Positions 1,393 to 28,907 of a stretch of 31,134 nucleotides of DNA are shown here, piece by piece. The stretch covers positions 1 through 31,134 of the forward strand of contig CAZBQP010000001.1 of the NCBI GenBank assembly GCA_964494075.1, written 5' to 3'. Position 1 is the first letter of the stretch. Each line of letters opens with the position of its first letter. The notes beneath the pieces are model-generated. The model saw only the letters and a program-made list of their open reading frames with translations. It ran no database searches and was not told where the DNA came from. The stretch is from an uncultured Clostridia bacterium (GTDB taxonomy: Bacteria > Bacillota > Clostridia > Christensenellales > Borkfalkiaceae). The position numbers were made by a program, and so were the translations under genes.

Positions 1393-2070
1393 TCAAAGAA
1401 AGCTCTCAATCAAAATCTTTAAGCCGATGGCAATCAATACAACGCCGCCAAACATGGACGCTTTGTCCGCAAGCTTACTTCCAAGCATTTTTCCAATGTA
1501 CACCGCACCGACACTCAATCCAAACGTACACACGCCGATCACGCCCGTCGCACCCCATACGCCGAGTGCCAAACCTGCATCCGAAATTGCAGCCATCTGC
1601 AAGGTCACACCTACCGCCAACGCATCAATCGAGGTTGCGATTGCCTGCGTAAAAAGTTCCAAAATTGTAAGTTCTTTTTGAGGTTCTTCTGTTTGTAAAC
1701 AAACACCTGCCCCCGTCATTTGTTCTTCTTCTGCATTTTCAACAAGTGAAGAGGACTGCTTACTTTCCGCTCTCGCCGCACGAAATTCTTTCACACCTTC
1801 CCACAACATTCTGCCACCGAGAAAGGCGAGAAGACCGAAGGAAATCCAAGCCGAAACGGACTCAAACACGTCCATAAACGCACCCGTCACGATTCCCGTA
1901 ATAAAGTAGCCGATGACAGGCATCAAAAACTGAAAGAAGCCGAAAAATGCGCCGATCAACAACGCTTTTTTCACAGGCATTTTCGGATAGAGCATCCCGT
2001 TCGTCATAGCCACCGTGCACGCATCCATTGAAAGTGCCACTGCCAACAATAAAATTTCCCAAATTTGCAT
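1393..2070 (-). CDS. mntP: Manganese efflux pump MntP (DUF204 duplicate)
   Basis: ALSMDACTVA and ATSIDALAVG motifs, six hydrophobic helices, and an acidic insertion between the two halves. Confidence 0.9.
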   Translation of the reverse strand: MQIWEILLLAVALSMDACTVAMTNGMLYPKMPVKKALLIGAFFGFFQFLMPVIGYFITGIVTGAFMDVFESVSAWISFGLLAFLGGRMLWEGVKEFRAARAESKQSSSLVENAEEEQMTGAGVCLQTEEPQKELTILELFTQAIATSIDALAVGVTLQMAAISDAGLALGVWGATGVIGVCTFGLSVGAVYIGKMLGSKLADKASMFGGVVLIAIGLKILIESFL

Positions 2071-2082
2071 AAACGTTTTCCT

Positions 2083-2709
2083 TTATAAGCAATTTTTTTC
2101 TTTCAAAATCGTAAGAACATCCGCAAAAATTTCCTGAGGCGTTTTTTTGCCGTCTACACAAACGACACGTTCAGGTTCGTCCTTCGCAATCTTTTTATAT
2201 CCTTCATAGACTCGTTCATGGAACTCCGTTCCGGCAAGCTCCATGCGATCGTTTTGATCGGCGCCGTGTTTTCTATCAAATGCGTCCTTAGGCGAAAGAT
2301 CTATGAAAATGGTCACGTCGGGGGCATAATTTTTCATAGCGTACCCATTGATTTGCCCCACAAAATCAACACCCAAACCACGCGCATACGCTTGATAAGC
2401 AAGGGACGAATCCACGTATCGGTCGCAAATAACAAGTTTCCCTTCTTGTAACGCAGGTTCTACTCGATCATGTAAATGCTGCACTCTCGACGCCGCATAC
2501 AAGAGCGCTTCGCAAGCGTCCGTCATTTCCATATTTTTGCCACTGAGCAAAATCTCACGAATCATCTCGGATATTTTGCCACCCCCCGGTTCTCTCGTGA
2601 AAATATGGGGGACGTTCTGCTCCGTCAAATATTTATTGAGCAATGTAAGCTGCGTACTTTTACCGCATCCGTCACAGCCTTCAAATGTGATAAATTTTCC
2701 TCTCTTCAT
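2083..2709 (-). CDS. tmk: Thymidylate kinase
   Basis: FITFEGCDGCGKST P-loop, TREPGG, CDRY, AYQ and IDL motifs. Confidence 0.97.
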   Translation of the reverse strand: MKRGKFITFEGCDGCGKSTQLTLLNKYLTEQNVPHIFTREPGGGKISEMIREILLSGKNMEMTDACEALLYAASRVQHLHDRVEPALQEGKLVICDRYVDSSLAYQAYARGLGVDFVGQINGYAMKNYAPDVTIFIDLSPKDAFDRKHGADQNDRMELAGTEFHERVYEGYKKIAKDEPERVVCVDGKKTPQEIFADVLTILKEKNCL

Positions 2710-3989
2710 CTTCTTTTCCTCTCTTCTTCGTCTTCTTTATATACCAAAATCTCGCCTTCTACAATTCCAAATACGTTGTCCGCCTTGGCAAGCAATTCTA
2801 TCTTTTCTTTTTTCACTTGTTCACCAGAGAAAATCAAAGGTGTACAAGGGGGGAAGAGTCCGCAATTTGCCGCACAGACTCTGTTTTCGCCATCTCGCAA
2901 ATCCACCCATTCCGTCTCCCTGTCTTGATAAGAAACAGTGGGGGCAGGTATGCGTTGAGTTTGTTTTATCGGGGTATACGGATATAGCTTGAACAGCTCC
3001 AGCAGACGAGTTTTCAGTCTCTCAAACTCCTGCATCGTCGTCGCAGGGGAAAGATAGAACATCACCACGTCTCCGTCGCAAAATTCAGCGTAAATTCCTT
3101 CTCGTTCAAGCGTTTTTTCCACCTCGAACGACTGCGCTCCAAACAATGCGCAGATTTTCGTCCAGTCGTCTCCGCTCACCACTCTTTCTTGTCGTTGAAA
3201 AGCTCGAACAGCCTCTTCCAATATCTTATTTCTTGGATATTTGACCGCATATTCCACGCTCGCCATGATAGGATAGGAAGGGCTTGACGTGCGGAAAATT
3301 TCCACCCCTTCACGCAACGCCGCCGCATATTTTTCCGTCCGTGCGGAAACCACAGCGCCTTGCGTCATAGCAGGCAAACTTTTATGTACCCCGTCCACCC
3401 AAAGATCGGCATACGTTCCGGCATAACGAGGCTTGTCCATATGCAAATGTCCGCCATGCGCACCGTCAATCAAAAGCAATTTCCCCTTTTTCTGACAGTA
3501 TTCACGCACCCATGAAAGATCGGGAATACGTCCGTAATAATCGGGAGAGATGACAAATATACAATCTGTGTGCTCAAAAATATTCGTGAACGCAGACATG
3601 GGTGCTTCATTTTCATAAAGCATGGGAGCCAATCCCAATAATTTGCACCCGTTAAACGCACTCTTATGCCCATTTACAGGCAATGCAACCGTTTTCACCC
3701 CGAGCTGCTTTGCCGCATAGAGCATGGAAAGCACACCGCAGGTGCTCCCGTCTGTTAAAATAAAACTCTTTGCCGCACCGACGATTTCCGCAATTTCCCT
3801 TTCCGCCTCTAAAATGCAACCATGGGGCGCAGATAAATTGTCCGAAAAAGAAAGCTCCGTAATATCCCACCCTTCGACTTTATGCCCGGGCGTGTGAAAG
3901 GACAAATGAGGCTTGTCTGCATTCTCCAGCAGCATTTGATAGATGCGGCACTTTTTCAAAGTTTCTTGATTACGAAAATAATTTTGCAT
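2706..3989 (-). CDS. Orn/Lys/Arg decarboxylase, PLP-dependent (YaaO-like)
   Basis: SFHTPGHK, LTDGST, DGAHG, HKSLP (PLP lysine), TSSPSYPIMAS and C-terminal PPCTP; its position upstream of tmk matches Bacillus yaaO-tmk. Confidence 0.85.
   Translation of the reverse strand: MQNYFRNQETLKKCRIYQMLLENADKPHLSFHTPGHKVEGWDITELSFSDNLSAPHGCILEAEREIAEIVGAAKSFILTDGSTCGVLSMLYAAKQLGVKTVALPVNGHKSAFNGCKLLGLAPMLYENEAPMSAFTNIFEHTDCIFVISPDYYGRIPDLSWVREYCQKKGKLLLIDGAHGGHLHMDKPRYAGTYADLWVDGVHKSLPAMTQGAVVSARTEKYAAALREGVEIFRTSSPSYPIMASVEYAVKYPRNKILEEAVRAFQRQERVVSGDDWTKICALFGAQSFEVEKTLEREGIYAEFCDGDVVMFYLSPATTMQEFERLKTRLLELFKLYPYTPIKQTQRIPAPTVSYQDRETEWVDLRDGENRVCAANCGLFPPCTPLIFSGEQVKKEKIELLAKADNVFGIVEGEILVYKEDEEERKRR
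2944..2956 (-). repeat. Dispersed motif copy, core AACGCATACCTGC, inside the decarboxylase CDS (sense strand)
   Basis: Exact match to TSAACGCAKACMTGS; context aaactcAACGCATACCTGCccc. Confidence 0.8.
3589..3601 (+). repeat. Dispersed motif copy, core AACGCAGACATGG, inside the decarboxylase CDS (antisense)
   Basis: Exact match; context cgtgAACGCAGACATGGgtgc. Confidence 0.8.
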
Positions 3990-4068
3990 ATACGATCACT
4001 ATTTTTTAATAAAACGCATTCAAGCACCAACTCGCAGCTAAAGACATTCCACGTATAGCATTCGCTTC

Positions 4069-4113
4069 AAAAAAGAAAGCACCGAGTTTCCGAAGGTAGA
4101 AATTCGGCGCTTT
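4069..4113 (-). terminator. Intrinsic terminator downstream of lysS
   Basis: Minus-strand stem aaagcgccgaatttc/gaaactcggtgcttt followed by a U-tract. Confidence 0.7.
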
Positions 4114-4223
4114 GTGCAAGCAACTGCATAAGGTCATCAAGCGAGCGTTGTTCGATTTTGAGGAATACAACGCATTCATTCAAAATCAGCCCTTTGCGCC
4201 GTATGTGATTGTGCGTGTTTTCC

Positions 4224-5735
4224 TTACTTTTTAGGTTTCATCGTGGGGAAGAGAATAACGTCACGAATGGTGGAGCTATCCGTCAACAACATGACGAAAC
4301 GATCAAGCCCCATACCCAAGCCACCTGTGGGAGGCAAGCCGTATTCCAACGCATTGATGAAATCCTCATCAACCTGTGCTTCATTATTCCCCTTCGCACG
4401 CTTCGCTTCAATCTGCTTCACCATACGCTGCTTTTGATCAATGGGATCATTCAACTCGGAGAAGGCGTTGCCATACTCGTGGCCGCAGATGAAATATTCA
4501 AAACGTTCGGTAAACAGGGGGTTGGAAGGCTTACGTTTTGCCAGGGGGGAGTTTTCTACGGGATAATCGTAAATCACGGTGGGTTGAATCAACTTATCTT
4601 CTACGAATGCATCGAAGAGTTCGATAAGTACCCAGCCCTTGGTTGCATTTACATGCTCGAGTTCTACACCCAAGCTTGCCGCCGCTGCCCTTGCGTCTTC
4701 GTCCGTTGCCCAGTCGTTGTAATCAACGCCGGCATATTTTTTCACCGCTTCCGCCATGGTGAGACGTTCCCAGTTACCCATATGAATTTCCGTGCCCTGA
4801 TAGGTGATATCGAGCGTACCGCAAACATTGAGTGTAACCGTCTTGTACATTTCTTCGATCATGTCCATCATGCCGATATAGTCAGTGTACGCCTGATACA
4901 TTTCAATGGTGGTAAATTCAGGGTTGTGATATGCGTCCATACCTTCGTTACGGAAAATACGGCCCACTTCATATACTCTATCCAAACCACCTACGATAAG
5001 ACGCTTCAAGCAAAGCTCAGTTTCCACACGCATATACATATCCAAATCAAGTGCGTTGTGATGCGTCTTGAAAGGACGGGCATCCGCACCGATTTCCATC
5101 GTCAAAAGGGTAGGCGTATCCACTTCGAGGTATCCACGATTGTCAAGGAAGTTTCTGATCTCTTTCAAAATCTTGGAACGCATACGGAAGGTATCACGCA
5201 CGTCCTTGTTCATAATCAAATCGAGGTGGCGCAAACGATACTTCATATCCTTGTCCTGCAACCCGTTGTATTTTTCAGGAAGGGGAAGAAGGGACTTCGT
5301 AAGCAAAACGAGTTCGTTTACGTGAATAGAAACTTCCCCCGTCTGCGTCTTGAATACAAACCCTTTGAATCCGAAAATATCACCGATATCGTAATCCTTT
5401 TTATAGGACATATAATTTTCTTCGCCGATATCCTGACGAGTTACGTAAATTTGAATAGAACCGCTCTTATCGGAAATATGCGAGAAGGAAGCTTTACCCA
5501 TGATACGACGAGACATCATACGCCCCGCCATACAAACGGTTTTCCCTTCGTATTCTTCGTAATTATTTTTAATCGTTTCAGAATCCGCATCCACGGGATA
5601 TTTTACCTGTTCGTAAGGATTTTTGCCTTCCGAAATAAGTTTTGCGAGCTTCTCACGACGAATTCTCGCCTGTTCGATCAGTTGCTCTTCTTCGGACACC
5701 TCCACAGGCGCCTTCACATTTTTATTATCTGCCAT
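4224..5735 (-). CDS. lysS: Lysine--tRNA ligase, class II
   Basis: OB anticodon-binding domain (MAGRMMSRRIMGKASF), motif 2 FRNEGMDAYHNPEFT, EYGLPPTGGLGMGLDR and VILFP. Confidence 0.99.
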   Translation of the reverse strand: MADNKNVKAPVEVSEEEQLIEQARIRREKLAKLISEGKNPYEQVKYPVDADSETIKNNYEEYEGKTVCMAGRMMSRRIMGKASFSHISDKSGSIQIYVTRQDIGEENYMSYKKDYDIGDIFGFKGFVFKTQTGEVSIHVNELVLLTKSLLPLPEKYNGLQDKDMKYRLRHLDLIMNKDVRDTFRMRSKILKEIRNFLDNRGYLEVDTPTLLTMEIGADARPFKTHHNALDLDMYMRVETELCLKRLIVGGLDRVYEVGRIFRNEGMDAYHNPEFTTIEMYQAYTDYIGMMDMIEEMYKTVTLNVCGTLDITYQGTEIHMGNWERLTMAEAVKKYAGVDYNDWATDEDARAAAASLGVELEHVNATKGWVLIELFDAFVEDKLIQPTVIYDYPVENSPLAKRKPSNPLFTERFEYFICGHEYGNAFSELNDPIDQKQRMVKQIEAKRAKGNNEAQVDEDFINALEYGLPPTGGLGMGLDRFVMLLTDSSTIRDVILFPTMKPKK

Positions 5736-5807
5736 TGTTTGTCACCTCGTAATTATTCCCCAAAAATGTACTTCATCAAATACATGGGGTGCTTCTTTTA
5801 TAAAATC

Positions 5808-6278
5808 TTAGAAAATCTCACGCACGTGAAGCTTGTATTCCCCGTCGGGCGCAAGCACACGAACCGCATCCCCGACTTTATGTTTAAGGAGCGCTTTGCC
5901 AACAGGGGACTCGTTGGAAATTTTGTTTTCCATTGCGTTCGCTTCGGTGGAGCCGGTGATTTCGTACACCTCTTCCTCATCGAGTTCTTCATCGTAAACG
6001 CGAACTTTCGAACCAACGTGTACGTAGGACGTATCAGTGTTTTCTTCGATGATCACTGCGTTCTTGATCTTGTAGTCAAGCTCTACGATTTCACCTTCGT
6101 TCGCTGCCTGTTCGTTGCGTGCTGCATCATATTCTGCATTTTCGGAAAGATCGCCGTGGCTTCTCGCTTCCGTGATTCTATCCACGATTTCCTGACGCTT
6201 GTCCGTCTGCAAATACTTCAAGCGTTTTACCGCCTCATCGTAACCCTTTTGTGTCATAATAAACTGCTGTTCAGCCAT
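5808..6278 (-). CDS. greA: Transcription elongation factor GreA
   Basis: ARSHGDLSENAEYDAA and ISNESPVGKALL. Confidence 0.99.
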   Translation of the reverse strand: MAEQQFIMTQKGYDEAVKRLKYLQTDKRQEIVDRITEARSHGDLSENAEYDAARNEQAANEGEIVELDYKIKNAVIIEENTDTSYVHVGSKVRVYDEELDEEEVYEITGSTEANAMENKISNESPVGKALLKHKVGDAVRVLAPDGEYKLHVREIF

Positions 6279-6357
6279 TTAATTCCTCCTGTTCCGCAAT
6301 TTATAATATTCCGATTTTTTCGTCGTTATACCCGCTCCATACAAAATAGAGTACACG

Positions 6358-6423
6358 AAAAAAACCGTTCGCTTACGGAACGTAAAAATACAACCGTGAC
6401 TTTTCGTCATCTGAAAGCCACGG
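6358..6423 (-). promoter_or_regulatory. Structured greA leader: a 10-bp hairpin plus a short hairpin with U7 (possible attenuator)
   Basis: Stem ccguggcuuu/aaagucacgg, then cguuc..gaacg or ccgu..acgg followed by a U7 tract, all between the promoter and the greA start. Confidence 0.4.
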
Positions 6424-6443
6424 CAGCGTATTTGATTATCTTT

Positions 6444-6472
6444 ATTATACCCTATTTTTTAGGGTTTGTCAA
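6444..6472 (-). promoter_or_regulatory. Consensus sigma-A promoter for greA-lysS
   Basis: Perfect TTGACA-17 bp-TATAAT; the spacer contains the inverted repeat ACCCTA-N5-TAGGGT. Confidence 0.85.
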
Positions 6473-6508
6473 TGATTTTTATAAGTTTTCAAAAGAATTT
6501 CCGTCGAT

Positions 6509-7678
6509 TTATCCGTTTTGTTTCAAAAATTTCGACATTCGTTCAAACGCTTCCGACAGGGCGTTCATACTCGTCGCATACGAAAGTCTAACGTTATGCT
6601 CCCCGAACTGTCCAAACGCATTGCCGGGCACAACCGCCACCTTTTGACTTGCAAGCAGTCCGTTGGCAAACTCTTCCCCGTTAAGCCCCGTCGAACGAAC
6701 GGAGGGGAAGGCGTAAAACGCACCGCGCGGCTCAAAACAATCAAGCCCGATTTCTTTCAGGGAATACAACACGAATTTTCTGCGTTTGTCGTAGGATTCT
6801 CGCATTTCTTCCACCGTCGAAAAGTTATCCGAAAGTCCGTCCTTAAGTGCCTCAATCGCCGCAAACTGAGACATGGTCGGCGCACACATAATTCCATATT
6901 GATGAATTTTGAACATCGCCTCGTCAATTTCAGGCGGCGCACACACGTATCCCATACGCCAACCGGTCATGGCGAACGCCTTGGAAAAACCACTCACGTA
7001 TACCGTGCGTTCCTTCATACCGGGAATCTGCGCAATCGATGCGTGCTTTTGCCCGTAGGTAAGCTCGGCATAGATCTCGTCGCTGATGACGAGCAAATCG
7101 TGTTTGACAATCACTTTCGCAATCGCCTCCAAATCCTCCCTCGTCATAATCCCACCCGTCGGGTTGTTGGGATAGGTCAAAATCAGCGCCTTCGTCTTTG
7201 GCGTGATTGCCCTTTCAAGATATTCGGGTTTCAGTACGAAATTATCCTTTTCAAGACACTCTACGTGCACGGGCACGCCGTCAGACATGGACACGAGAGG
7301 GGAGTATGACACGTATGCAGGATCGGGAATAAGCACCTCGTCGCCACATTCCACACAAGCACGCAATGCAAGGTCGATCGCTTCACTTCCACCCACCGTC
7401 ACGATGATATGTTTGGGATCGTACGAGAGAGAGAATCTCTCCTCCAAATATCGGGAAATAAGGGAAAGCAACGCAGGCATACCACGGTTACCCGTGTACT
7501 GCGTATACCCTCTTTGTAAGGAAGTGATTGCAGCCGAACGCACCTTCCAGGGCGTAACAAAATCAGGTTCGCCCACACCCAGCGAGATCGCACCCTCCGT
7601 CACCGATACGATGTCGAAAAATTTACGAATCCCACTCGGTTGTATATTTTTTGTTTTTTGATTAACAAAATCACGCAT
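6509..7678 (-). CDS. Class I/II PLP aminotransferase (YugH/AlaT-like)
   Basis: SLGVGEPDF, PNNPTG, SDEIY, SGFSKAFAMTGWRMGY and VPGNAFG; preceded by an Lrp regulator as in Bacillus yugG-yugH. Confidence 0.92.
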   Translation of the reverse strand: MRDFVNQKTKNIQPSGIRKFFDIVSVTEGAISLGVGEPDFVTPWKVRSAAITSLQRGYTQYTGNRGMPALLSLISRYLEERFSLSYDPKHIIVTVGGSEAIDLALRACVECGDEVLIPDPAYVSYSPLVSMSDGVPVHVECLEKDNFVLKPEYLERAITPKTKALILTYPNNPTGGIMTREDLEAIAKVIVKHDLLVISDEIYAELTYGQKHASIAQIPGMKERTVYVSGFSKAFAMTGWRMGYVCAPPEIDEAMFKIHQYGIMCAPTMSQFAAIEALKDGLSDNFSTVEEMRESYDKRRKFVLYSLKEIGLDCFEPRGAFYAFPSVRSTGLNGEEFANGLLASQKVAVVPGNAFGQFGEHNVRLSYATSMNALSEAFERMSKFLKQNG

Positions 7679-7709
7679 TGTTATTACCTATGACACTAAA
7701 ATGAGCATA

Positions 7710-7722
7710 CCATGTATGCGTT
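7710..7722 (-). repeat. Dispersed motif copy, intergenic between the Lrp gene and the aminotransferase
   Basis: Exact match; part of a 35-bp segment (7697-7731) nearly identical to 9602-9637. Confidence 0.85.
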
Positions 7723-7728
7723 GAGTTA

Positions 7729-9594: not shown

Positions 9595-9611
9595 AGGAAT
9601 TTAATAAACTC

Positions 9612-9624
9612 AACGCATACATGG
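9612..9624 (+). repeat. Dispersed motif copy, intergenic between pdaB and the SSB-like gene
   Basis: Exact match; 21 bp identical to the copy at 7707-7727. Confidence 0.85.
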
Positions 9625-9671
9625 TATAGTCATTTTATTAATTGAATTACTTTTGGAGGTATAAAAATACT

Positions 9672-11475: not shown

Positions 11476-12444
11476 ATGAACGAAGAAATCGAATATGCAG
11501 AAATGTTGGAAATTCCCGTCTCGACCGTCAACGTCGTACGAAAAAACAATCGACGCAAAAAGCGCACGGATGCAACCGAATTAAAAGGCGCAAACACACA
11601 CGACACCCCCTTAAAAGAGTCCGTCATCGAACAAGTAAACGAGCGGTTACACGAGGAAGAACAATCACAACCGCCCTTACAACAACCCTTGCAGGTGGAA
11701 GGGGATCTTTTCGCCGAGAGCGTAAACAGCGAAGGGAGGTTAGATTTTGAACCCATTCCCGAACGCATCGACACCGTGCGTTTGTATTCAACCGAGGAGA
11801 CAGAAGGCAATTCTTCCTCTCGACTTTTTCCACAAGATTATTCGTTGCATTCTGAAAATGGAGAGGGTAAGTATGCGTTGAGCAATAAAAATCATCTTGA
11901 AAAAATCTTCAACACAACCCTCAATGCAGAATTTATCGCCGCCTGCGCATTATGTGGAGCCATCTTTTTAACCAACGTGTTTATGCCGCAAAGCGCCATC
12001 AACACTTTTTTCCGCGCCATTGCAGACGTGCCTACGATTTCACAAACAGACAATCGAACGTATGAGGATTTCCATTTATCTCCCGTCGTCAGCGTTCTTT
12101 CCGATGCGGAACTTTCCCTTTCAGCCGCCGGCATTTTATCCTTTCAAGACGATTGCTGCGTATATCCTTGCGCAAACGGAACCGTGGCGGAAGTCAGTCA
12201 ATCCAGCGATGGAATTTATACAATTAAAATCAAATATTCCGATTCCTTCACCGGCGTTATCAATGGATTAAACTACGTCTATTACACCGTAGGAGAGGAA
12301 GTGAAAGCAAACGTTCCCGTCGGATACACGGACGGCAACACTGAAGTGCAGGTTACAATGTACGATTCAGGCGCTTTGCTAAATTGCTTCTGTCTCACGG
12401 AAGAAAACTGTCTTGCGTGGTTGAAGGATATGGAAGAAGAATAA
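11476..12444 (+). CDS. SpoIVFA-like membrane protein with a degenerate M23/LytM domain
   Basis: Acidic disordered N-terminus, one TM helix (FIAACALCGAIFLTNVF), C-terminal LytM-like fold (ANGTV...VGEEVKANVPVG) lacking catalytic His; directly upstream of a spoIVFB homologue. Confidence 0.6.
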   Translation: MNEEIEYAEMLEIPVSTVNVVRKNNRRKKRTDATELKGANTHDTPLKESVIEQVNERLHEEEQSQPPLQQPLQVEGDLFAESVNSEGRLDFEPIPERIDTVRLYSTEETEGNSSSRLFPQDYSLHSENGEGKYALSNKNHLEKIFNTTLNAEFIAACALCGAIFLTNVFMPQSAINTFFRAIADVPTISQTDNRTYEDFHLSPVVSVLSDAELSLSAAGILSFQDDCCVYPCANGTVAEVSQSSDGIYTIKIKYSDSFTGVINGLNYVYYTVGEEVKANVPVGYTDGNTEVQVTMYDSGALLNCFCLTEENCLAWLKDMEEE

Positions 12445-15277: not shown

Positions 15278-17722
15278 ATGGAAAACAAGAAAGAAAAAGT
15301 TTTGAATACAAATTTACTGCCCGTCGTGCCCCTTCGTGGCAAGGTAGCATTTCCGCACACTTCCATTTCCTTTGAAGTGGGCAGAAAAATGACACTCAAA
15401 GCCATCGAACGCGCTTCCAACAACGACGATCGTTTGGTGCTTATTCTCACGCAAAAACAGACGGAAAAGGACGACGTGGAACCTTCCGACCTTTACACGG
15501 TCGGGTGTGTGGCAAAAATCAAGCAAGTTGCCCAGCTTTCGGGCGGCGTTATTCGTGTCCTTTGTGAAGGACTTTATCGAGCAAAAGCACGCGCACTTTC
15601 CTTGAGCGAGAGCGACGGCTGTATCTACGGCGTCGCAGACGAACTCTCCATTCAACACGGAGACGAGGTGTTAGAGGAGGCATACTTCCGCACAGCGAAA
15701 GCGTTGGTGAAAGACGTACTCTCCGCAGACGGAAAGATTCCCAAAGATACGATTGCAAAGCTCGACAAGATTGAAGACGCTGACGAATACGTGGACGTGA
15801 CGCTCTCTTCCATGCGTGTTCGCATCGACGTGAAACAACACCTTTTAGAAGAAACGCATATCGTGGAAAGGCTCAAACGTTTTGAGCAATGCTTAAACGA
15901 CGAGCTTGAAATCTCCAAAATCGAGAAAAAAATCGCAAACTCCGTTCGTCAAAATATTGACAAAAATCAAAAGGAATACTTCTTGCGTGAGCAAATCAAA
16001 GCCATTCATACAGAGCTTGGCGACGATGAAAAGGAAGAGGATGAATATCGAGAAAAGGTACTCAACAAACACCTGCCTGCCTCACTCGAAGAAAAATGCC
16101 TTAAAGAAATCCATCGCATGAGCAAAATGCCCAGTTCCTCGCCCGAGTATACCGTCATTGCAAATTACCTCGATCAGGTGATTGCGCTGCCCTGGACGGA
16201 AGAGACTGTGGATACCGAGAAACTGGAAGATTGCGTCGCCGTTTTGAACGCCGACCATTACGGCTTGGAAAAAATCAAGGAGCGCATCACCGAATATCTC
16301 GCCGTGTTGAAGTTGACGGGAAATATGAAAGCGCCCATTCTCTGCTTTGTCGGGCCCCCGGGCGTCGGCAAGACAAGCATCGCAAATTCCATCGCAAGAG
16401 CTTTGGGGCGTAAATTCGTTCGCATGAGTCTCGGCGGCGTCAAGGACGAAGCGGAAATCCGCGGACATCGCCGCACTTATATCGGCGCAATGCCCGGACG
16501 TATTTTGTACGGCATGAAAAACGCAGGTACCATCAACCCCGTCTTTTTGCTTGACGAAATCGACAAACTCTCTTCGGATATGCAAGGAGATCCTGCAAGC
16601 GCTTTTCTCGAAGTGCTCGATCCCGAGCAGAACGCAACCTTCCGTGATCGCTACCTCGAATATCCCTACGATTTGAGCAAAGTACTTTTCATTACGACGG
16701 CAAACTCGCTTGAAGGAATTCCTTCCCCCTTGCGTGATCGTATGGAAATTATTGAGCTTTCAGGCTACACAATGGAGGAGAAAACGGAAATTTCCAAACG
16801 TTACCTCATTCCCAAACAACTTGAAGCGAACGGCTTGACAACGGACAACCTCACCATCACCCCCGACGGCATTCAAGCCACCATCGAAGGATACACCCGA
16901 GAAGCGGGCGTACGTACCTTAGAACGAACCATCGGCACTCTCTGCCGTAAGGTTGCCGTGCGGTACGCCAACGACAAAAATCTTCCATGCGTGGAACTCA
17001 ACGCAGACATGGTATCCGCATTTTTGGGTACTCCTCGTTTTAACACGGACGACGAACGCTTTGATAAAGAAGTGGGTGCCGTAACGGGACTTGCCTGGAC
17101 AGCATTCGGCGGCACGACACTCACCGTGGAAGCCTCATTAATGCCCGGCAAAGGCGATTTAAAACTCACGGGAAAGCTGGGCGACGTAATGAAAGAATCT
17201 GCCTTGGCAGCGCTTACGTACATTCGTGCGCACGCCGATCAATATGGTATTCCGACTGAAAAATTCAGCACGACCGACTTGCACGTACACGTTCCCGACG
17301 GCGCAACCCCCAAAGACGGGCCGAGCGCCGGCGTTACGATTGCAACCGCCATACTCTCCGCCTTCACGGGTAGACACGTACGTGGCGATGTTGCTATGAC
17401 GGGAGAAATCTCCCTTCGAGGCAAAGTGCTGCCTATCGGCGGACTGAAAGAAAAATCCCTTGCCGCAAGACGAGTAGGAATTCACACCGTGCTCATCCCC
17501 AACGGAAATCGTCGTGATTTGGATGAACTTCCCGAAATCGTGAAAGAGGACGTACTCTTTATCCCCGTTAAGGAAGTAAGCGAAGTATTCGATCTCATGC
17601 TCGAAGGCGGTAAATTCTACGAATATTCCGAAAGCGAACTTAGGAAAAACAAACAAGAACAAAATACTACACCCATTCCCGCTATGTCGGAAAACGATCA
17701 AGCGGAAAGCATTCGTTGTTAA
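15278..17722 (+). CDS. lon: Lon ATP-dependent protease
   Basis: N-domain LPVVPLRG, Walker A GPPGVGKT, LLDEIDK, catalytic PKDGPSAG and AMTGEISLRG..PIGGLKEK. Confidence 0.99.
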   Translation: MENKKEKVLNTNLLPVVPLRGKVAFPHTSISFEVGRKMTLKAIERASNNDDRLVLILTQKQTEKDDVEPSDLYTVGCVAKIKQVAQLSGGVIRVLCEGLYRAKARALSLSESDGCIYGVADELSIQHGDEVLEEAYFRTAKALVKDVLSADGKIPKDTIAKLDKIEDADEYVDVTLSSMRVRIDVKQHLLEETHIVERLKRFEQCLNDELEISKIEKKIANSVRQNIDKNQKEYFLREQIKAIHTELGDDEKEEDEYREKVLNKHLPASLEEKCLKEIHRMSKMPSSSPEYTVIANYLDQVIALPWTEETVDTEKLEDCVAVLNADHYGLEKIKERITEYLAVLKLTGNMKAPILCFVGPPGVGKTSIANSIARALGRKFVRMSLGGVKDEAEIRGHRRTYIGAMPGRILYGMKNAGTINPVFLLDEIDKLSSDMQGDPASAFLEVLDPEQNATFRDRYLEYPYDLSKVLFITTANSLEGIPSPLRDRMEIIELSGYTMEEKTEISKRYLIPKQLEANGLTTDNLTITPDGIQATIEGYTREAGVRTLERTIGTLCRKVAVRYANDKNLPCVELNADMVSAFLGTPRFNTDDERFDKEVGAVTGLAWTAFGGTTLTVEASLMPGKGDLKLTGKLGDVMKESALAALTYIRAHADQYGIPTEKFSTTDLHVHVPDGATPKDGPSAGVTIATAILSAFTGRHVRGDVAMTGEISLRGKVLPIGGLKEKSLAARRVGIHTVLIPNGNRRDLDELPEIVKEDVLFIPVKEVSEVFDLMLEGGKFYEYSESELRKNKQEQNTTPIPAMSENDQAESIRC
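17000..17012 (+). repeat. Dispersed motif copy inside lon (sense strand; encodes NADMV)
   Basis: aactcAACGCAGACATGGtat matches the intergenic copies at 20 of 21 positions. Confidence 0.85.
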
Positions 17723-19155: not shown

Positions 19156-19434
19156 TTATTCCGCGATGGGATAAACGCTTGCTTTTTTCTTATCTTTGCC
19201 CATTCTTTCGTAACGAACTACACCGTCAACGAGCGCGAACAAGGTGTCATCTTTACCGATGCCTACGTTCGTACCAGGATGAATCTTCGTGCCTCTCTGG
19301 CGAACGAGGATGTTCCCTGCAAGAACCGCCTGACCGTCGCTGCGCTTCGTGCCAAGACGTTTTGCTTCACTGTCTCTACCGTTGTGGGAGGAGCCGGTAC
19401 CTTTTTTATGAGCGAATAAACTGATAAAAATCAT
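19156..19434 (-). CDS. rpmA: 50S ribosomal protein L27 with a 7-aa N-terminal extension
   Basis: [22 protein letters not shown]...KRLG...[10 protein letters not shown]; AGGAGA RBS. Confidence 0.98.
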
Positions 19435-19489
19435 CTTTATTTCTCCTTAAAATTCTAATTTCTCCGCTTCTTAACAGAAGCACTTGCAA

Positions 19490-19795
19490 TTAAAGTTCGA
19501 TTTTTTCAACTTTGATTGCGGTGAAGGGCTGTCTGTGACCCTGCTTTTTACGCTCGTTCTTCTTTGCTTTATACTTGAAAACGATGATTTTCTTCGCTTT
19601 GTCCTGCTTAACAACAGTAGCGGTAACTTTTGCGTTTGCCACTTCAGCGCCAGCTTTTACGCCGTTTTCATCAGCAATCATAAGAACTTTGAAGCTTACG
19701 GATTCGCCTTCAGCTGCTGCGAGCTTTTCAACTCTTACAACGTCGCCTTCCGCAACCTTATACTGCTTGTTCCCGTTATCAATAATAGCGTACAT
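19490..19795 (-). CDS. rplU: 50S ribosomal protein L21
   Basis: [18 protein letters not shown]...KQGHRQPFT. Confidence 0.98.
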
Positions 19796-19923: not shown

Positions 19924-19941
19924 GCATTTTTGCATGATTTT

Positions 19942-19971
19942 TCATATTTTTCTGTTTTTTACACCATAATA
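19942..19971 (+). promoter_or_regulatory. Possible sigma-G promoter
   Basis: TCATA-18 bp-CATAATA, compared with the sigma-G consensus GHATA-18-CATAHTA. Confidence 0.35.
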
Positions 19972-20001
19972 GAAATAGTAAATAAAAAAGGAGATCGCCT
20001 T

Positions 20002-20448
20002 ATGGAACAAGACAACAAGAAAACGGAAGAAGCGTTGGCGGAAATTTACCGCAACGCACAGCTTGCTTTAACCTCCATCGCCAACATTCTGCCCGAAATC
20101 GGCGAGGACGAACGATTAAAAAACGAGCTTCACGCCCAACACGAGGAATACGAACAATTTTCCGCCAAAGCATGCATGCTCGCACAAGATGAAAACATTG
20201 AAATCAAAGAGCCGAATCCGATAAAAAAAGCGATGACGTGGGGTTCTATCAAGATGAACACACTGACGGACAGCTCTCGCTCACACATTGCAGAAATGAT
20301 GCTGCAAGGAACGGTGATGGGGATTTCCGCTCTTAGAAAAACAGCAGGGGAGCTTGGTGAAAATAGCAATGAACGCATACCTGCCCTATTGCAAGAGATG
20401 ATAAACCGTGAAGAAGCTTTTGAAAAAGTTTGGAAAGAAATGTTGTGA
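20002..20448 (+). CDS. Hypothetical all-helical protein, 148 aa, possibly ferritin-like; start reassigned to 20002
   Basis: AAGGAG RBS before MEQDNKK; helical pattern ending SHIAEMMLQGTVMGI. Confidence 0.75.
   Translation: MEQDNKKTEEALAEIYRNAQLALTSIANILPEIGEDERLKNELHAQHEEYEQFSAKACMLAQDENIEIKEPNPIKKAMTWGSIKMNTLTDSSRSHIAEMMLQGTVMGISALRKTAGELGENSNERIPALLQEMINREEAFEKVWKEML
20372..20384 (+). repeat. Dispersed motif copy inside the hypothetical CDS (sense strand; encodes ERIPA)
   Basis: Exact match; context aatgAACGCATACCTGCcct. Confidence 0.8.
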
Positions 20449-20661: not shown

Positions 20662-22380
20662 TTATTTATGTCCGTTCGGAGTCACCAACACCGTTTTATA
20701 ATCGGTGTACGTCACAAATCCTGCCTTACTCTTGCTCGGTTTTTTGACGAATTTTCGCTTACAATAATCGACGGGAATCTTGTCGCCGTCCTTTCCGTCC
20801 GAATAGTACGCACAGATTTCAGCTGCAAACAACAGCGTTTCATCGCTTACCTGCCCACCTTCCGTCACAATAATCACGTGAGAGGAGTGATACTTTTGTG
20901 TATGCAACCATATATCCTCAGGCGATGCCGCTCGAAGCAAACGATCGTTTTGCACGTTGTTTCGTCCGGCGTAAATTTTCATACCGCCGTGTTCATATTC
21001 ACGGAAGGGGATTGTCTGTTCCTTCTTCTTTCCGCCCACCCGTTCTTTGGGTGCACGCAACAATCCTAACTCAACCAATTCCGCCTCGATTTCCTTCAAA
21101 TCCAGCGCCGTCTCCGCCGTGGAAACAGCGGCGAACACGCTATCCGTATAGTCAATTTCCAACTCCTCTTTTTGGAGCATCGGCGTCAAAATTTCCTTCG
21201 CACGTTTGTGTTTATTGTACGTCTTAAAATACCGTTGCGCATTCTTCGACGGGGGCAGGGTTGCGTCCAACGATATTTTCACCTTCTCCATATCGGGGGA
21301 ATACCAGTTTTCCAACTCCACTTCCTTCATGCCTTTTTCCAACCGATACAAGTTTGCAGTAAGCAGCTCGCCTTTTATACGATACTCTTCCGCATTCTCC
21401 GCATCTTTCAATCGTTCAAGCGTTTCCTGCAACTTTTTCGTCTGTTTTTTCTTCAAATTTCTGACCGCCGTTTCCAGCTTCCGTCTCTTATCTTCAAATC
21501 CCTTCTTACTCTCTCTCGACGTATAGAAAACGTCTTCCGCTTTGCACAGCGAGGGCGTTTCCTCGCCACCAACGACGGGAAAAGCAAAGAAATCGACGTA
21601 GCTGCCGTTCTGCGGTTTCAAGCAGGGACGATTTGGCTCGTTTTGGCAAAACTCCCCGACGAACGACCAAAGGGGAATCTTGGCGTTTTTGCTTACAACA
21701 TCTTCCCCTTGATTGAGTACCACCGCTCGACGAACAATTTCACGAGCCGTAGACATCGCAAGCCCTGCCACGTTTTCAAAAAGGAAGAGTGCTAAACCCT
21801 CCTCTTCCCATCCGTCGGTGCGCATGGAAAGGTAATTTTGCAAACGTGAACGCATACCTGCCCCGTCGAAAGGGGATAATTTATCCTGTGGCGTCGGGTA
21901 TTGATAGCGTGCACCTGCAAGCAGCAAACGATGGTTTTCACTCTCCAACGCCGTCGTTTTGAGTGCGCCTAAAATAATTCCTTTTTCGCTTAAAACAATG
22001 TTGGAATACTTGCCCATAAGCTCGCAATGCAACACACGATCACACTCCGAAAAGTCCGTCGTACAATGCACGACAATCTCGATAATGCGCTCGAATTCAT
22101 GCTGCCGCACTTCCAAAATTTCCGCATTTTGCAAATGTTTACGCAAGAGCATACAAAAGTTGGGGGCAACGGGCGCAGGTTCTTTTTCCGTCAAAGACAG
22201 ACACACACGTGCGTTGGATGCGTTGGCGCTCAAAATCAGCTTGACCGTCGTTTTCCCCGTGTACACGATCAACGTGAGCTCATCCTTGTTGACCTGTGAA
22301 ATTCGATTGATTCGTCCTCCGACGAGAAAGGCGTTGAGTTCTTGGGCTAATCGCCGTATATGAAATGCGTCCTGGGGCAT
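20662..22380 (-). CDS. rqcH: Ribosome quality-control factor RqcH (NFACT/FbpA family)
   Basis: NFACT-N (GRINRISQ...PNFCMLLRKHL...ELMGKYSNIVL), coiled coil, KNAQRYFKTYNK, and NFACT-R (GRNNVQNDRL...WLHTQKYHSSHV...VDY). Confidence 0.93.
   Translation of the reverse strand: MPQDAFHIRRLAQELNAFLVGGRINRISQVNKDELTLIVYTGKTTVKLILSANASNARVCLSLTEKEPAPVAPNFCMLLRKHLQNAEILEVRQHEFERIIEIVVHCTTDFSECDRVLHCELMGKYSNIVLSEKGIILGALKTTALESENHRLLLAGARYQYPTPQDKLSPFDGAGMRSRLQNYLSMRTDGWEEEGLALFLFENVAGLAMSTAREIVRRAVVLNQGEDVVSKNAKIPLWSFVGEFCQNEPNRPCLKPQNGSYVDFFAFPVVGGEETPSLCKAEDVFYTSRESKKGFEDKRRKLETAVRNLKKKQTKKLQETLERLKDAENAEEYRIKGELLTANLYRLEKGMKEVELENWYSPDMEKVKISLDATLPPSKNAQRYFKTYNKHKRAKEILTPMLQKEELEIDYTDSVFAAVSTAETALDLKEIEAELVELGLLRAPKERVGGKKKEQTIPFREYEHGGMKIYAGRNNVQNDRLLRAASPEDIWLHTQKYHSSHVIIVTEGGQVSDETLLFAAEICAYYSDGKDGDKIPVDYCKRKFVKKPSKSKAGFVTYTDYKTVLVTPNGHK
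21849..21861 (+). repeat. Dispersed motif copy inside rqcH (antisense; encodes GAGMRS)
   Basis: Exact match; context cgtgAACGCATACCTGCcccg. Confidence 0.8.
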
Positions 22381-24604: not shown

Positions 24605-24629
24605 TTCAAGCGATCCTTTACGATTCTAC

Positions 24630-24662: not shown

Positions 24663-24704
24663 CCCCAAAACACACAATAGTTTGAGAATATTGGAGAACA
24701 GATT

Positions 24705-25946
<1,242 letters not shown>

Positions 25947-26011
25947 AACGCACGATTTATGTGTTTCCTGTAAAAAAGTTGAAATATTTTCAACTTTTTT
26001 TTACTTTCCTC

Positions 26012-26040
26012 TTGACTTAACGGCAAAGTTAGTGTATAAT
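26012..26040 (+). promoter_or_regulatory. sigma-A promoter
   Basis: TTGACT-17 bp-TATAAT. Confidence 0.75.
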
Positions 26041-26080
26041 TTAACTTATAAGAAAGCATTCTCGAAAAGGAGGTACTTTT

Positions 26081-26737
26081 ATGAAGAAGAACAATACGAA
26101 TTCGCAGCCGGAAGTAACGCAACAGCAACAGCAGCAACAGCAACCTTACGGCTATGGTTATCCCCAAGGCTATCCTTACGGTTACGCTCAACAACCTTAT
26201 GCGTACGGCTATCCTCAAGGGTATGGATATCCTCAGCAACCCGTAAAAAACGAACCTTTATACGTCATGAAAAAGAGTGCATGGACCATCATTCGCTTTA
26301 AATATTTCTTACCTATGTTGCTCGCAGGGATTATTACCTTGATTGCTCATTTGTTTATGAAAGAAATTCTTCCCGATGTTGTGTTCTACGGCTTGTACGC
26401 ACTCACTGCGCTTTGCGTCATCATTCCCATGTCGATCATGATTATCAGAATTGCCAACATCAAAGACGACCAAATTTTGATTTACCCGAATAAAGTCGTT
26501 AAGAAATGGGGCATCTTGCAAAAGCATGAAGATACGAATATTTTCACGCAAATCCTTTCCGTCACCGCACATCAGACTTTCTGGGGCAGACTTTTCAATT
26601 ACGGTACTCTTAAAGTAGACGTCATGGGGAAATGGGATTTCGACATGAGAGGTATCAAAGATCCTTTCAAAGCGAGAGACTTCCTCGAACGTTTCGCTGC
26701 AAACGGCATGAGTATGCAACAGTTTATCATGAACTAA
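26081..26737 (+). CDS. Membrane protein with a Gln/Pro-Tyr-Gly repeat N-terminus, two TM helices and a bacterial PH (bPH_2-like) domain
   Basis: QQQQQQQPYGYGYPQGYPYGY..., two hydrophobic segments, and WGRLFNYGTLKV typical of bPH_2. Confidence 0.75.
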   Translation: MKKNNTNSQPEVTQQQQQQQQPYGYGYPQGYPYGYAQQPYAYGYPQGYGYPQQPVKNEPLYVMKKSAWTIIRFKYFLPMLLAGIITLIAHLFMKEILPDVVFYGLYALTALCVIIPMSIMIIRIANIKDDQILIYPNKVVKKWGILQKHEDTNIFTQILSVTAHQTFWGRLFNYGTLKVDVMGKWDFDMRGIKDPFKARDFLERFAANGMSMQQFIMN

Positions 26738-26751
26738 CCTACATAAACAAC

Positions 26752-26782
26752 AAAAGCTCACGGACTGTCCGTGAGCTTTTTT
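26752..26782 (+). terminator. Intrinsic terminator
   Basis: aaaagctcacggac-t-gtccgtgagctttt followed by tt. Confidence 0.8.
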
Positions 26783-26865
26783 ATTTTCCTTTGCGTTATT
26801 TTTGTCTTGTAATGCTCGTTTGTCACAATAACACTTTTTCTTTACTCATTGCTTTTTCTATGATA

Positions 26866-26896
26866 TACGCCCCGAACGAAATTCGTTCGGGGCGTA
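26866..26896. repeat. Perfect 31-bp palindrome with 15-bp arms
   Basis: tacgccccgaacgaa-a-ttcgttcggggcgta, with no flanking U-tract. Confidence 0.85.
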
Positions 26897-26920
26897 CTTC
26901 ACGATTGTTTTCAAATTATT

Positions 26921-27781
26921 TCAAAGCTCTTCAGAGTCGTCTTCGTGTTCCTCTTCCTGCTTATTATTCTTCTTAAAACGAAGCTCGTCCACGGGGTAGT
27001 CCTTGTAAATCCAACCGCCGTTTTTATCGTCACTCTTCACCTTCACCGTCATTTTCAGCATATTCACCGATACGACGATAGCTCGACCTTCGGGCGTACC
27101 CACCTCTAAACCGACTTTGGGCATTTTCTTGCTCGCCTCACTGTAATATTCGTTTTCATAACTCAAACAACACATGAGTCTTCCGCAAAGCCCGCTGATT
27201 TTTTCTGCGTTGAGGGACAATCCTTGCGTCTTCGCCATACGCACGCTCACCTTCTTAAACTCGGGCATATTGCCGGCGCAACAGCACGTTCTGCCACAAG
27301 GTGCAATGCCGCCGAGGTACTTCACCTCATCCCTGGTACCTATCTGTCGCAATTCAATACGGTTTCTGAAAGCGGATGCAAGGTCTTTGACAAGCTCACG
27401 GAAATCCACTCGGTTTGCCGACGTAAAGTAGAACACGATCTTCGATCCGTCGAATGCGTACTCGCAATCAATGAGTTTCATATCCAACTCGTGCTTGGCA
27501 ATCTTCTCTTTACAAAGCTGCATCGCCTGCGGCTTTTTCGACTGATACAACTCATACGTCTGCGTATCTTTTTCGGTTGCAATGCGCACAATCGGCTTCA
27601 AAGGGGGGACAATTTCGTCGTCTGCCACCTCTTTCACGGGATAGGACACCCACGCATATTCCAACCCTCTCGCCGTTTCCACGATGACGGGCATATTCTT
27701 CTCGTATACGTCTCCTTCTTTAGGGGAGAAGTAATACAGTTTTCCGCTATTTTTGAATTTAATTCCTACTACTTTTACCAT
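26921..27781 (-). CDS. ricT: RicT/YaaT (PSP1 domain; stage 0 sporulation family)
   Basis: VIVETARGLEYA, FYFTSANRVDFRELVKDLA, RIELRQIG, CGRTCCC and KISGLCGRLMCC; follows holB. Confidence 0.92.
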   Translation of the reverse strand: MVKVVGIKFKNSGKLYYFSPKEGDVYEKNMPVIVETARGLEYAWVSYPVKEVADDEIVPPLKPIVRIATEKDTQTYELYQSKKPQAMQLCKEKIAKHELDMKLIDCEYAFDGSKIVFYFTSANRVDFRELVKDLASAFRNRIELRQIGTRDEVKYLGGIAPCGRTCCCAGNMPEFKKVSVRMAKTQGLSLNAEKISGLCGRLMCCLSYENEYYSEASKKMPKVGLEVGTPEGRAIVVSVNMLKMTVKVKSDDKNGGWIYKDYPVDELRFKKNNKQEEEHEDDSEEL

Positions 27782-27789
27782 AAAATTAC

Positions 27790-28752
27790 CTATTTATTTC
27801 TAATTTTTGCCATGCACGTTTCTATGCACTGGGGGAATACGGCGTTGAATTGCACTTCCATTTCCGCTTGAGAAATCGCATCTTGCGCATAGAGCAATGC
27901 GACTTTGGAATACTTCATCGCCACGTCGTGCACCCTGATTTTTTCCGACTGTAACAACACTGCGCCTCGATAGGGAGCGCCGTTCATCTTGACGAGCAAA
28001 GCGTCTCGGAAAATCAAACGCAACAAGGACAACAATTCCTTTTTATATTTGGTTTCGCCCATGGAGCGAATCACCTGAGGAAGACGGTGTTCTTCCGTCA
28101 AAGCAAGGGAGAACGCCCCTTCCAAAAGCGTTTTGTAATAGCCGCCTTCCAACATGTTTTGCGCTTCGCCAACCACACCGCCACAAGTGGCTGCGCATAA
28201 GCTCAACGCAGACATGGTATACTTGTCTTGATAAATTCGAGCCAGACACGCCGTCACTTCTTCCATTGTGAAAGGGAGAATTTCCAGCCGTTTCGTTCTC
28301 GATAAAACGGTGGTTAATACGGAATACACCGACGTTGCGCCAAGCAGGAACACAACGTCTTTGGGCGGTTCTTCCAACAACTTCAAGAGCTTGTTTTGCG
28401 TCTGCGAATTCGCTTCGCTAAAATCTGCCAAAAGAAAGACTTTCTTACCACCCTCAACAGGGCTTAACAAGCTTTCTTCCTTGATTTTTTCCGCATCTTC
28501 GACGGTCAGTTTTTTTCCGTCCGTTGGATAAACGGGACAATCGAAAAAGCTTTCCTCGTCGATGAGTTTCTCCCGTCTTTCGTTTTCAAAAGAATTCTCC
28601 GTTTGAAAAAAGAGCTTCGCAAACGTTTTGAGCACGAAACGCAAGTTTTTACTATCATTACACAGCAAAAGATACGCATGAGAATGGGTATTCTCGGCGC
28701 ATTCCTTTTTAAGCAGACGATACGCCTGCGTTGTCTGTAACAATTCCTTCAT
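27790..28752 (-). CDS. holB: DNA polymerase III subunit delta'
   Basis: SHAYLL, QNKLLKLLEEPP and TTVLSRT; upstream of ricT/yaaT. Confidence 0.88.
   Translation of the reverse strand: MKELLQTTQAYRLLKKECAENTHSHAYLLLCNDSKNLRFVLKTFAKLFFQTENSFENERREKLIDEESFFDCPVYPTDGKKLTVEDAEKIKEESLLSPVEGGKKVFLLADFSEANSQTQNKLLKLLEEPPKDVVFLLGATSVYSVLTTVLSRTKRLEILPFTMEEVTACLARIYQDKYTMSALSLCAATCGGVVGEAQNMLEGGYYKTLLEGAFSLALTEEHRLPQVIRSMGETKYKKELLSLLRLIFRDALLVKMNGAPYRGAVLLQSEKIRVHDVAMKYSKVALLYAQDAISQAEMEVQFNAVFPQCIETCMAKIRNK
28205..28217 (+). repeat. Dispersed motif copy inside holB (antisense; encodes TMSAL)
   Basis: gctcAACGCAGACATGGtata matches the 9612 copy at 19 of 20 positions. Confidence 0.85.
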
Positions 28753-28816
28753 AACGGCTCCCGCTTCGATAAAGCAAAACTCAAATCTCGTTTTTTCTTC
28801 GGTATTTTCCTATATT

Positions 28817-28845
28817 AGTATACCACGTTTTTTTTAATTTGTCAA
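28817..28845 (-). promoter_or_regulatory. sigma-A promoter for holB-ricT
   Basis: TTGACA-17 bp-TATACT with TG extended -10. Confidence 0.8.
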
Positions 28846-28885
28846 GTAGTTGCCACACCTTCATAAAATATCAAAAACGAGGCAC

Positions 28886-28898
28886 CCATGTATGCGTT
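28886..28898 (-). repeat. Dispersed motif copy, intergenic, 10 bp past the stop codon of the 406-aa gene
   Basis: Exact match; context gttcAACGCATACATGGgtgc. Confidence 0.85.
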
Positions 28899-28907
28899 GA
28901 ACAATGG

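Follow-up and report, generated by a model that had tools for sequence, protein, structure and literature searches.

The stretch of DNA analysed here, 31,134 nt from an uncultured Clostridia bacterium (the window), is contig C1 of assembly G000 (1.277 Mb in 197 contigs, 45.8% G+C, 87% complete), and it carries nine exact copies of a non-palindromic 15-bp word that recurs throughout this genome and in those of its congeners in Candidatus Scatosoma. We confirmed that the word is a signal at the level of the DNA, for which neither protein sequence nor codon bias accounts, and we observed that its core diverges about three times less than its flanks between species. We consider that the word may be a lineage-specific signature of double-stranded DNA, composed of the 15-bp core and phased A/T tracts with a footprint of about 50-60 bp, that acts as a self-DNA tag; we give this reading a probability of roughly 0.4.

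The window contains nine exact matches to the pattern TSAACGCAKACMTGS, and 100 dinucleotide-preserving shuffles contain none. G000 as a whole has 77 exact 15-mers and some 100 members of the word family, and the commonest 12-mers of the entire genome all come from the word (CGCATACCTGCC, for example, has 50 copies). Called coding sequences (CDSs) hold 35 exact copies, compared with a mean of 1.1 when synonymous codons are shuffled within genes, keeping the proteins, and 0.0 when codon order is shuffled; the word is therefore neither a coding nor a composition effect. An earlier note on this DNA had named the genome-wide count against a codon-preserving shuffle beforehand as the test, and had put forward the motif as a candidate non-palindromic chromosomal signal whose six copies in CDSs are explained by neither protein sequence nor codon bias; the counts uphold this, and the signal is genome-wide. 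With genes assigned by Pfam and NCBIfam, six of the nine exact window copies lie in CDSs and three in short spacers, and a degenerate tenth copy lies in an open reading frame (ORF):

2944-2958, minus strand: exact copy TCAACGCATACCTGC, CCTGC-CCC subtype; sense in the Orn/Lys/Arg decarboxylase gene (2706-3989, minus); kept in the nearest relatives, G200 and G022
3587-3601, plus strand: exact copy TGAACGCAGACATGG, with 3' extension GTGCTTCATTTT to 3613; antisense in the same decarboxylase gene
7710-7724, minus strand: exact copy TCAACGCATACATGG plus TATGCTCATTTT, whole 7698-7724; spacer, AsnC-family stop +4 bp, aminotransferase start -32 bp
9610-9624, plus strand: exact copy TCAACGCATACATGG plus TATAGTCATTTT, whole 9610-9636; spacer between a polysaccharide deacetylase gene and an SSB-like gene
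11867-11881, minus strand: degenerate tenth copy TCAACGCATACTTAC, two mismatches, followed by CCTCTCCATTTT; antisense in ORF 11476-12444
16998-17012, plus strand: exact copy TCAACGCAGACATGG plus TATCCGCATTTT, whole 16998-17024; sense in lon, coding for LNADMVSAF
20370-20384, plus strand: exact copy TGAACGCATACCTGC; sense in ORF 19930-20448, coding for NERIPAL
21847-21861, plus strand: exact copy TGAACGCATACCTGC; antisense in rqcH, the site coding for GAGMRS
28203-28217, plus strand: exact copy TCAACGCAGACATGG; antisense in holB
28886-28900, minus strand: exact copy TCAACGCATACATGG plus GTGCCTCGTTTT, whole 28874-28900; spacer, stop of a 406-aa ORF +7 bp, holB -134 bp

All nine exact copies are where the earlier note had placed them (its coordinates are those of a 13-bp core, offset by 0-2 bases), and their 3' flanks fall into the subtypes it described: ATGG-TAT (four copies), ATGG-GTG (two) and CTGC-CC (three). 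Among the 77 exact copies of the genome the 3' half covaries, with 34 copies reading C-TG-C, 30 reading A-TG-G and 13 mixed, and with G at the K position only where there is A at the M position; both 3' forms persist across species and dialects. Independent metagenome runs from two other studies contain the locus with the same copies at >99.7% identity, and of the 74 differences between these runs and the window, none of the 40 listed is inside a core. We also observed that Logan unitigs of the independent runs break exactly at the rqcH copy (21845-21874) and that chimeric joints in these runs connect the copies at 7710 and 2944; the word is thus repeated often enough to fragment short-read assemblies.

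Orthologous loci indicate how copies come about within genes. Relatives of Lon identify the lineage as uncultured gut Clostridia, Candidatus Scatosoma, with Borkfalkia-type metagenome-assembled genomes (MAGs) further out, and at the lon site no gap is found in 40 of the 45 orthologues listed. Distant congeners have VD(E/K)EKVxEL in the same codons, nearer congeners are graded intermediates, and the lon of L006 joins an ancestral-type 5' half to a motif-type 3' half. Whichever way the steps ran, the lon copy involves no insertion. In L018, another relative, the Lon protease domain reads G-R-Q-V-R-V-D where the word lies, in place of the G-K-K-V-R-G-D of L023, and of the 75 orthologues that align there without gaps, 74 depart from the word at 3-9 of the 15 positions. 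Here the word has overwritten a conserved motif of the Lon catalytic domain, which makes this the clearest in-place case. At the site in ORF 19930-20448, G201 reads DENIKTL at the same gapless position at which the window reads NERIPAL; the differences between this ORF and its counterpart in G200 are mostly at third codon positions, from which we conclude that it is coding.

The antisense copy in the decarboxylase gene (3587) has an indel-free orthologous site with one mismatch in G200 and four in G022. The earlier note had proposed looking for the motif at the same positions in orthologous lon, holB and rqcH genes. In rqcH, 13 orthologous loci that align gaplessly retain the copy with 0-2 mismatches, and the holB copy is common to G200 and G022; lon and holB of distant species are motif-less, the latter being unrelated at the site and of equal length within the one- or two-base gaps of low-identity alignments.

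Between genes, length changes accompany the word. The spacer between the AsnC-family and aminotransferase genes is 7-18 bp long and motif-less in nine species; in nine other species it measures 45-68 bp (161 bp in one) and contains the word, with differing subtypes and junctions. For the copy between the deacetylase and SSB-like genes (9610), some relatives have a change of dialect and others have no copy, together with a change of length. The spacer copy at 28886 differs from its counterparts over the 15-mer by one mismatch in G200 and five in G022. Taking the nine cores together, 6 of 135 positions differ from G200 (4.4%), compared with 15.2% in the flanks, and the corresponding values for G022 are 8.6% and 21.3%. 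The bases directly beside the cores are no better kept than the flanks, at 22-27% divergence.

The core consensus is T-S-AACGC-R-K-AC-M-Y-G-S (15 bp). A position matrix built from 102 copies places the core between T(-2) and S(+12), with about 1-2 bits per position, and shows secondary information at +18 to +23 (TC.TTT) as well as A/T-rich patches every ~10 bp, near -19, -9, +23 and +33. Counting from the first T of the 15-mer, T occupies positions +23 to +25 in 53-79% of copies against a background of 25%, and this T-run is seen separately in intergenic, antisense-CDS and sense-CDS copies. Since it is present regardless of where a copy lies, the extended signal of 50-60 bp belongs to the element and is not a side effect of location. 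The phased A/T tracts suggest to us that a sequence-specific protein bends the duplex. Some copies form head-to-head pairs overlapping at S, which give perfect or near-perfect 27-bp palindromes of the form GCAGGTATGCGTT-S-AACGCATACCTGC (in the relatives G009, G012, G007 and G156, and in G000 at C12:5885 and C45:7393); this pairing explains why the motif can have either C or G as its second base. Most copies are not palindromic.

Genes were called with a crude codon-usage caller (82% coding) that missed some genes (e.g. ORF 19930-20448, M50 peptidase), so that the intergenic enrichment given here is somewhat overstated. By these calls, 49 of 94 copies lie outside genes and 45 lie in CDSs, sense and antisense and in several frames. 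The number of copies per kb is 0.30 in co-directional spacers, 0.26 in convergent spacers, 0.16 in divergent spacers and 0.043 in CDSs, intergenic DNA being 4-7 times richer in copies than coding DNA. Density therefore follows tolerance and depends little on promoter or terminator context. Intergenic copies often come directly after a stop codon or the T-run of a terminator, and their orientation relative to the flanking genes is 17 versus 13. The raw strand bias of 62:32, which favours the C-rich strand, is fully explained by base skew: the composition-favoured strand has 55 of the 94 copies compared with 60.6 expected from skew alone, leaving no polarity of the kind known from Chi or the FtsK-orienting polar sequences (KOPS), one of the possibilities listed in the earlier note.

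The note had also raised an origin-anchoring site for sporulation. Anchoring of the RacA or ParB kind finds no support in the spread of sites: in G011, the most contiguous relative (14 contigs), 35 sites are distributed over 11 contigs, and blocks syntenic to the window, which are origin-proximal, are 2-5 times enriched in several species. Copies are over-dispersed among the contigs of G000 (p = 2e-4), C1 having 9 where 2.3 are expected. GC skew is uniformly negative over the window and fits an origin at its right end.

The word is present in 23 of the 24 congeners first sampled (0-129 copies) and absent from 16 genomes that represent other families of the order, and among 150 genomes of the family it is abundant solely in Scatosoma. 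Low-copy congeners still have 2-8 exact copies. Its spelling varies across species and genera, with AACGCATAC and AACGCGTAC as dialects and AACGCGGGCATGG in a sister genus. The A form is dominant in G000, and other Scatosoma species favour AACGCGTAC (the G form), with 98, 81 and 70 copies versus 2 in G000. In the sister genus, AACGCGGGCATGG occurs in 6 of 7 genomes, with 11-24 copies in five of them, and reversed-pattern controls give 0-1; related words are in excess in a third genus. The word family therefore predates the genus Scatosoma and has both species and genus dialects. We found no description of the word in the literature searched.

The orthologous loci show that copies arise within genes by point substitution in place, and between genes by small length changes; the core is then preferentially kept while the preferred spelling drifts between species and genera. 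From these observations, we propose that a sequence-specific protein would bind and bend the DNA at the word, and the word, as a self-DNA tag, would bias which DNA is kept or recombined, through a molecular drive of the kind that maintains the uptake signal sequence (USS) in Pasteurellaceae and the DNA uptake sequence (DUS) in Neisseriaceae. As far as its sequence evolution can be read from the genomes, the word behaves as USS and DUS do, and its fixation is probably biased, by drive or by weak selection. The uptake-like signal that the earlier note had suggested finds partial support, in the in-place gains, the conserved core, the dialects and the phased tracts; it fails on the machinery, as ComGA/ComGB-type genes are missing in nearly all genomes of the genus. 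If the word is a self-DNA tag, tagged DNA must enter the cell, or move within it, by some path other than the canonical ComG/type IV pilus. For lack of this pilus we do not class the word among the uptake sequences.

Several findings weigh against the tag reading. Known Gram-positive transformation requires ComGA/ComGB-type genes, and a true T2SSE ATPase (ComGA/PilB type; ~466 bits, full-length) is found in just 3 of 41 Scatosoma genomes (G198, G002 and G192, where it may lie on accessory DNA or belong to a subclade), while T2SSF is found in none of 5 genomes, one of them 100% complete. ComEC is present in 145 of the 151 family genomes. Density reaches at best about 1 copy per 12 kb, tenfold below USS or DUS, and copy number spans 2 to >130 among congeners. 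The two strongly covarying 3' forms are not predicted by a simple one-reader matrix, no reader gene was found among the candidates looked at (the ParB-like protein, the 406-aa ORF and genes on motif-dense contigs), and drive and weak selection are indistinguishable with these data.

We know of no uptake-sequence-type signal from Firmicutes, and sequence-specific self-DNA tags are, to our knowledge, established in only two proteobacterial families. Such tags influence recombination, the boundaries between species and the make-up of genomes. A similar word in spore-forming gut Clostridia, overwriting even conserved residues of Lon, would mean that self-DNA tags are more widespread and mechanistically more diverse, or else that another genome-wide DNA-reading system, architectural or defensive, is as yet undescribed in Firmicutes. 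A bolder form of the proposal, which we regard as speculative and rather improbable, is that Scatosoma and its sister genera have an uptake-sequence-type recognition of self DNA that works without a type IV/ComG pilus, in which a putative protein would read the 15-bp word with its bending tracts, bias the import, protection or recombination of kin DNA, and co-evolve with the dialects. Through covariation, the differences in dialect between sister species offer a direct way to find the reader, and the word could be put to practical use as a marker with which to bin sequences of the genus and follow its strains in metagenomes.

The genomes contain ComEC and DprA. We rejected ComEC as a co-varying gene: its universal presence in the family does not follow that of the word and is thus uninformative. 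The sole ParB-family gene of G000 is on contig C145 (L169, 973-1914, minus), which adjoins the left end of the window, and lies downstream of ftsH; the 3-kb stretch examined beside it contains no parA. Each genome examined has one such gene. The CTP-binding GERR patch (arginine patch) of the ParB-like protein is degenerate (AERD), and its helix-turn-helix and DNA-reading residues look parS-type when interpreted after Jalal et al. 2020. Canonical parS sites number 1-3 in the relatives; G000 has no exact one and one with a single mismatch. A ParB/Noc reader, which the earlier note had put among its candidates, was rejected on the strength of these parS-type residues, of the canonical parS sites, and of the word not being a 14-16 bp palindrome. 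After rsmG there comes, in place of noc/parA/parB, the 406-aa ORF (28908-30128, minus), which has no Pfam or NCBIfam match and contains one hydrophobic segment resembling a transmembrane helix; it is not an evident DNA binder and was also rejected. Genes on motif-dense contigs proved to be ordinary housekeeping and sporulation genes. These include SpoIIE, whose gene contains the word twice, and SpoVT, on contigs C28 and C129; their presence suggests that this gut lineage, which has a small genome, forms spores.

The closest likenesses are to the two proteobacterial systems. USS of Pasteurellaceae has a 9-bp core, AAGTGCGGT, and two helically phased AT-rich tracts, spanning ~29 bp in all. Like USS, the word has a non-palindromic core with phased A/T tracts, occurs on both strands without replication polarity, is written in place at tolerant positions of genes, is enriched between genes, sometimes as terminator-like inverted pairs, and has lineage dialects around a conserved core. 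It differs from USS in a longer core with two covarying 3' forms, in its sparser copies (by a factor of ten) and widely variable copy number between congeners, and in its host, a spore-forming Firmicute of a genus without ComGA/ComGB-type pilus genes; the likeness is one of sequence. DUS of Neisseriaceae is a 12-mer with genus dialects that is read by the minor pilin ComP. It shares with the word the genus and species dialects, the over-representation in core housekeeping genes and the inverted pairs near gene ends; however, most genomes here have no type IV pilus, hence no pilin receptor, and the word is far less dense and has extended A/T tracts, of which DUS has none. The highly iterated palindrome HIP1 (GCGATCGC) and other iterated words of cyanobacteria and other phyla are likewise genome-wide, kept in place in genes by a force acting on the DNA and spelled in a lineage-specific way, but HIP1, which is linked to methyltransferase sites, is palindromic, short and far denser, whereas the word is long and asymmetric with flanking bending tracts.

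It is possible, though we think it doubtful, that the word consists of sites for a nucleoid-associated or chromosome-organising protein, comparable to Noc-binding sites (NBS), SlmA-binding sites (SBS) or RacA ram, kept by weak selection for architecture, perhaps at sporulation, with no drive. The phased A/T tracts imply wrapping of DNA, the conserved core and the 2-5-fold enrichment of the origin-syntenic block in several species are in keeping with it, some perfect 27-bp palindromic pairs are what a binding dimer would lead one to expect, and the lineage, with its SpoIIE and SpoVT, is a likely spore-former. As in the NBS, parS and ram systems, in which tens to ~100 specific protein-binding sites are scattered through genes with some origin-proximal excess, the ~100 sites per genome are within the range of Noc sites. 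Those sites, however, are palindromic, conserved across genera and read by ParB-family or RacA proteins, whereas the word is asymmetric and fast-evolving, most of its sites are non-palindromic half sites, they are found genome-wide and are not restricted to the origin, and the only ParB-family protein looks parS-specific in genomes that have canonical parS, with no candidate protein found. A range of 2 to >130 copies among congeners and a spelling that changes between sister species would also be odd for an essential system. Less probable, and in our view unlikely, is that the word is a miniature repeat of ~30-35 bp spread by copying, through a transposase or recombinase or through short-patch gene conversion, the CDS copies being chance near-matches that were converted. 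Its presence or absence between genes with 30-50 bp of extra DNA, the different subtypes in the same spacer from species to species, discrete covarying subtypes that resemble repeat subfamilies, the 26 identical bases common to several copies and the clustering beyond a Poisson model would all fit. Nevertheless, every testable CDS copy is a gapless substitution in a conserved gene, there is no homology beyond ~35 bp, only one viral contig has the 19-mer, and the persistence of both 3' subtypes across species and dialects argues for constraint and against drifting subfamilies. The earlier note had allowed that the word might be the end of an insertion sequence (IS) or miniature inverted-repeat transposable element (MITE); this finds no support, in view of the gapless CDS copies and of the lack of terminal inverted repeats and of consistent target duplications, although intergenic copies do show length polymorphism. 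Repetitive extragenic palindromic (REP) sequences and bacterial interspersed mosaic elements (BIMEs) with their REP-associated tyrosine transposase (RAYT), and MITEs, are similarly short (~35 bp) dispersed intergenic repeats, sometimes hairpins and often beside terminators; they are transposase-dependent insertions confined to intergenic DNA, whereas half of the word copies are gapless in genes. A REP element with RAYT is not supported either: most copies are non-palindromic, nearly half (45/94) are in CDSs, and the Y1 transposase (RAYT/IS200 type, PF01797) is absent from G000, from G022 (129 copies) and from the complete G045, high-copy genomes among them.

The remaining explanations fare worse than these. 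A Chi-like recombination signal read by AddAB, with DNA carrying the word escaping degradation and recombining, is very unlikely. An AddA-like gene is present, over-representation, in-place writing in genes and lineage specificity are as for Chi, and drive could operate through any route of gene transfer without a pilus; but known Chi sites are 5-8 nt long and are read on single-stranded DNA, whereas the word combines a core of 15 bp with phased A/T tracts of the sort that typify bending of the duplex, and here there is no strand polarity beyond base skew and a density of <=1 per 12 kb that is near zero in some congeners. To an element of transcription or RNA, be it a portable promoter of the extended -10 type, one half of an intrinsic terminator, a mini-ORF in a leader (reverse complement M-x-x-P-C-M-R-stop) or a small RNA, we assign a chance that is slight at most. 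In its favour, TGnTATnnT can be read in the ATGG-TAT subtype, many intergenic copies are directly beside the T-run of a terminator or make up one side of a hairpin that precedes Ts, and full palindromic pairs with TCATTTT after them would be able to fold into terminators. Against it, intergenic copies face both ways relative to the flanking genes, with a similar density in convergent spacers and a lower one in divergent spacers, and about half of all copies are in genes. The CCTGC-CCC subtype lacks both a -10 box and a hairpin, hairpins are confined to some of the copies, and the window has no Rfam family and no tRNA. The sequencing runs found to hold the window sequence are DNA runs only. The core also resembles part of the SMART template-switch oligo, with which it has TCAACGCAGA and ACATGG in common, but the probability of an artefact of assembly, adapter or primer is next to nil: copies are in frame in intact conserved genes, the same sites recur in MAGs of many independent projects and in the contigs of the independent runs, species have dialects, and the upstream flank never matches the oligo. 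As far as the data go, an artefact is refuted.

We rejected several further identities. The reverse complement ATG-x-x-CCA-TGT-ATG-CGT-TGA could suggest an alternative genetic code or a conserved N-terminal peptide; there are long ORFs under table 11, and TGA read as sense at 7710 runs into TAG a few codons on, with copies in several frames. None of the sigma-54, extracytoplasmic function (ECF) and sporulation-sigma promoters, catabolite-responsive elements (cre), LexA, CtsR and DnaA boxes fits the word when compared by eye, and no preference for promoters is seen among the spacer classes. In G000, a crude scan for arrays of clustered regularly interspaced short palindromic repeats (CRISPR) gave none, and a solitary CRISPR repeat was rejected. 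Phage origin was rejected too, the one viral contig with the 19-mer having a single copy.

Three observations concern other features of these genomes. A 215-bp tandem duplication with AACGCATAC, on contig C31 of G000 (7415 and 7630), is unrelated to the word family. In the window, an 812-aa ORF (4209-6647, plus) that has no family match is antisense to a class II aminoacyl-tRNA synthetase gene (4224-5735, minus) and to greA (5808-6278, minus), and this long shadow ORF very probably does not represent a gene. Across the genus, the window is best conserved in rpmA (L27) and rplU (L21), at 19156-19795 on the minus strand, with 80-93% identity.

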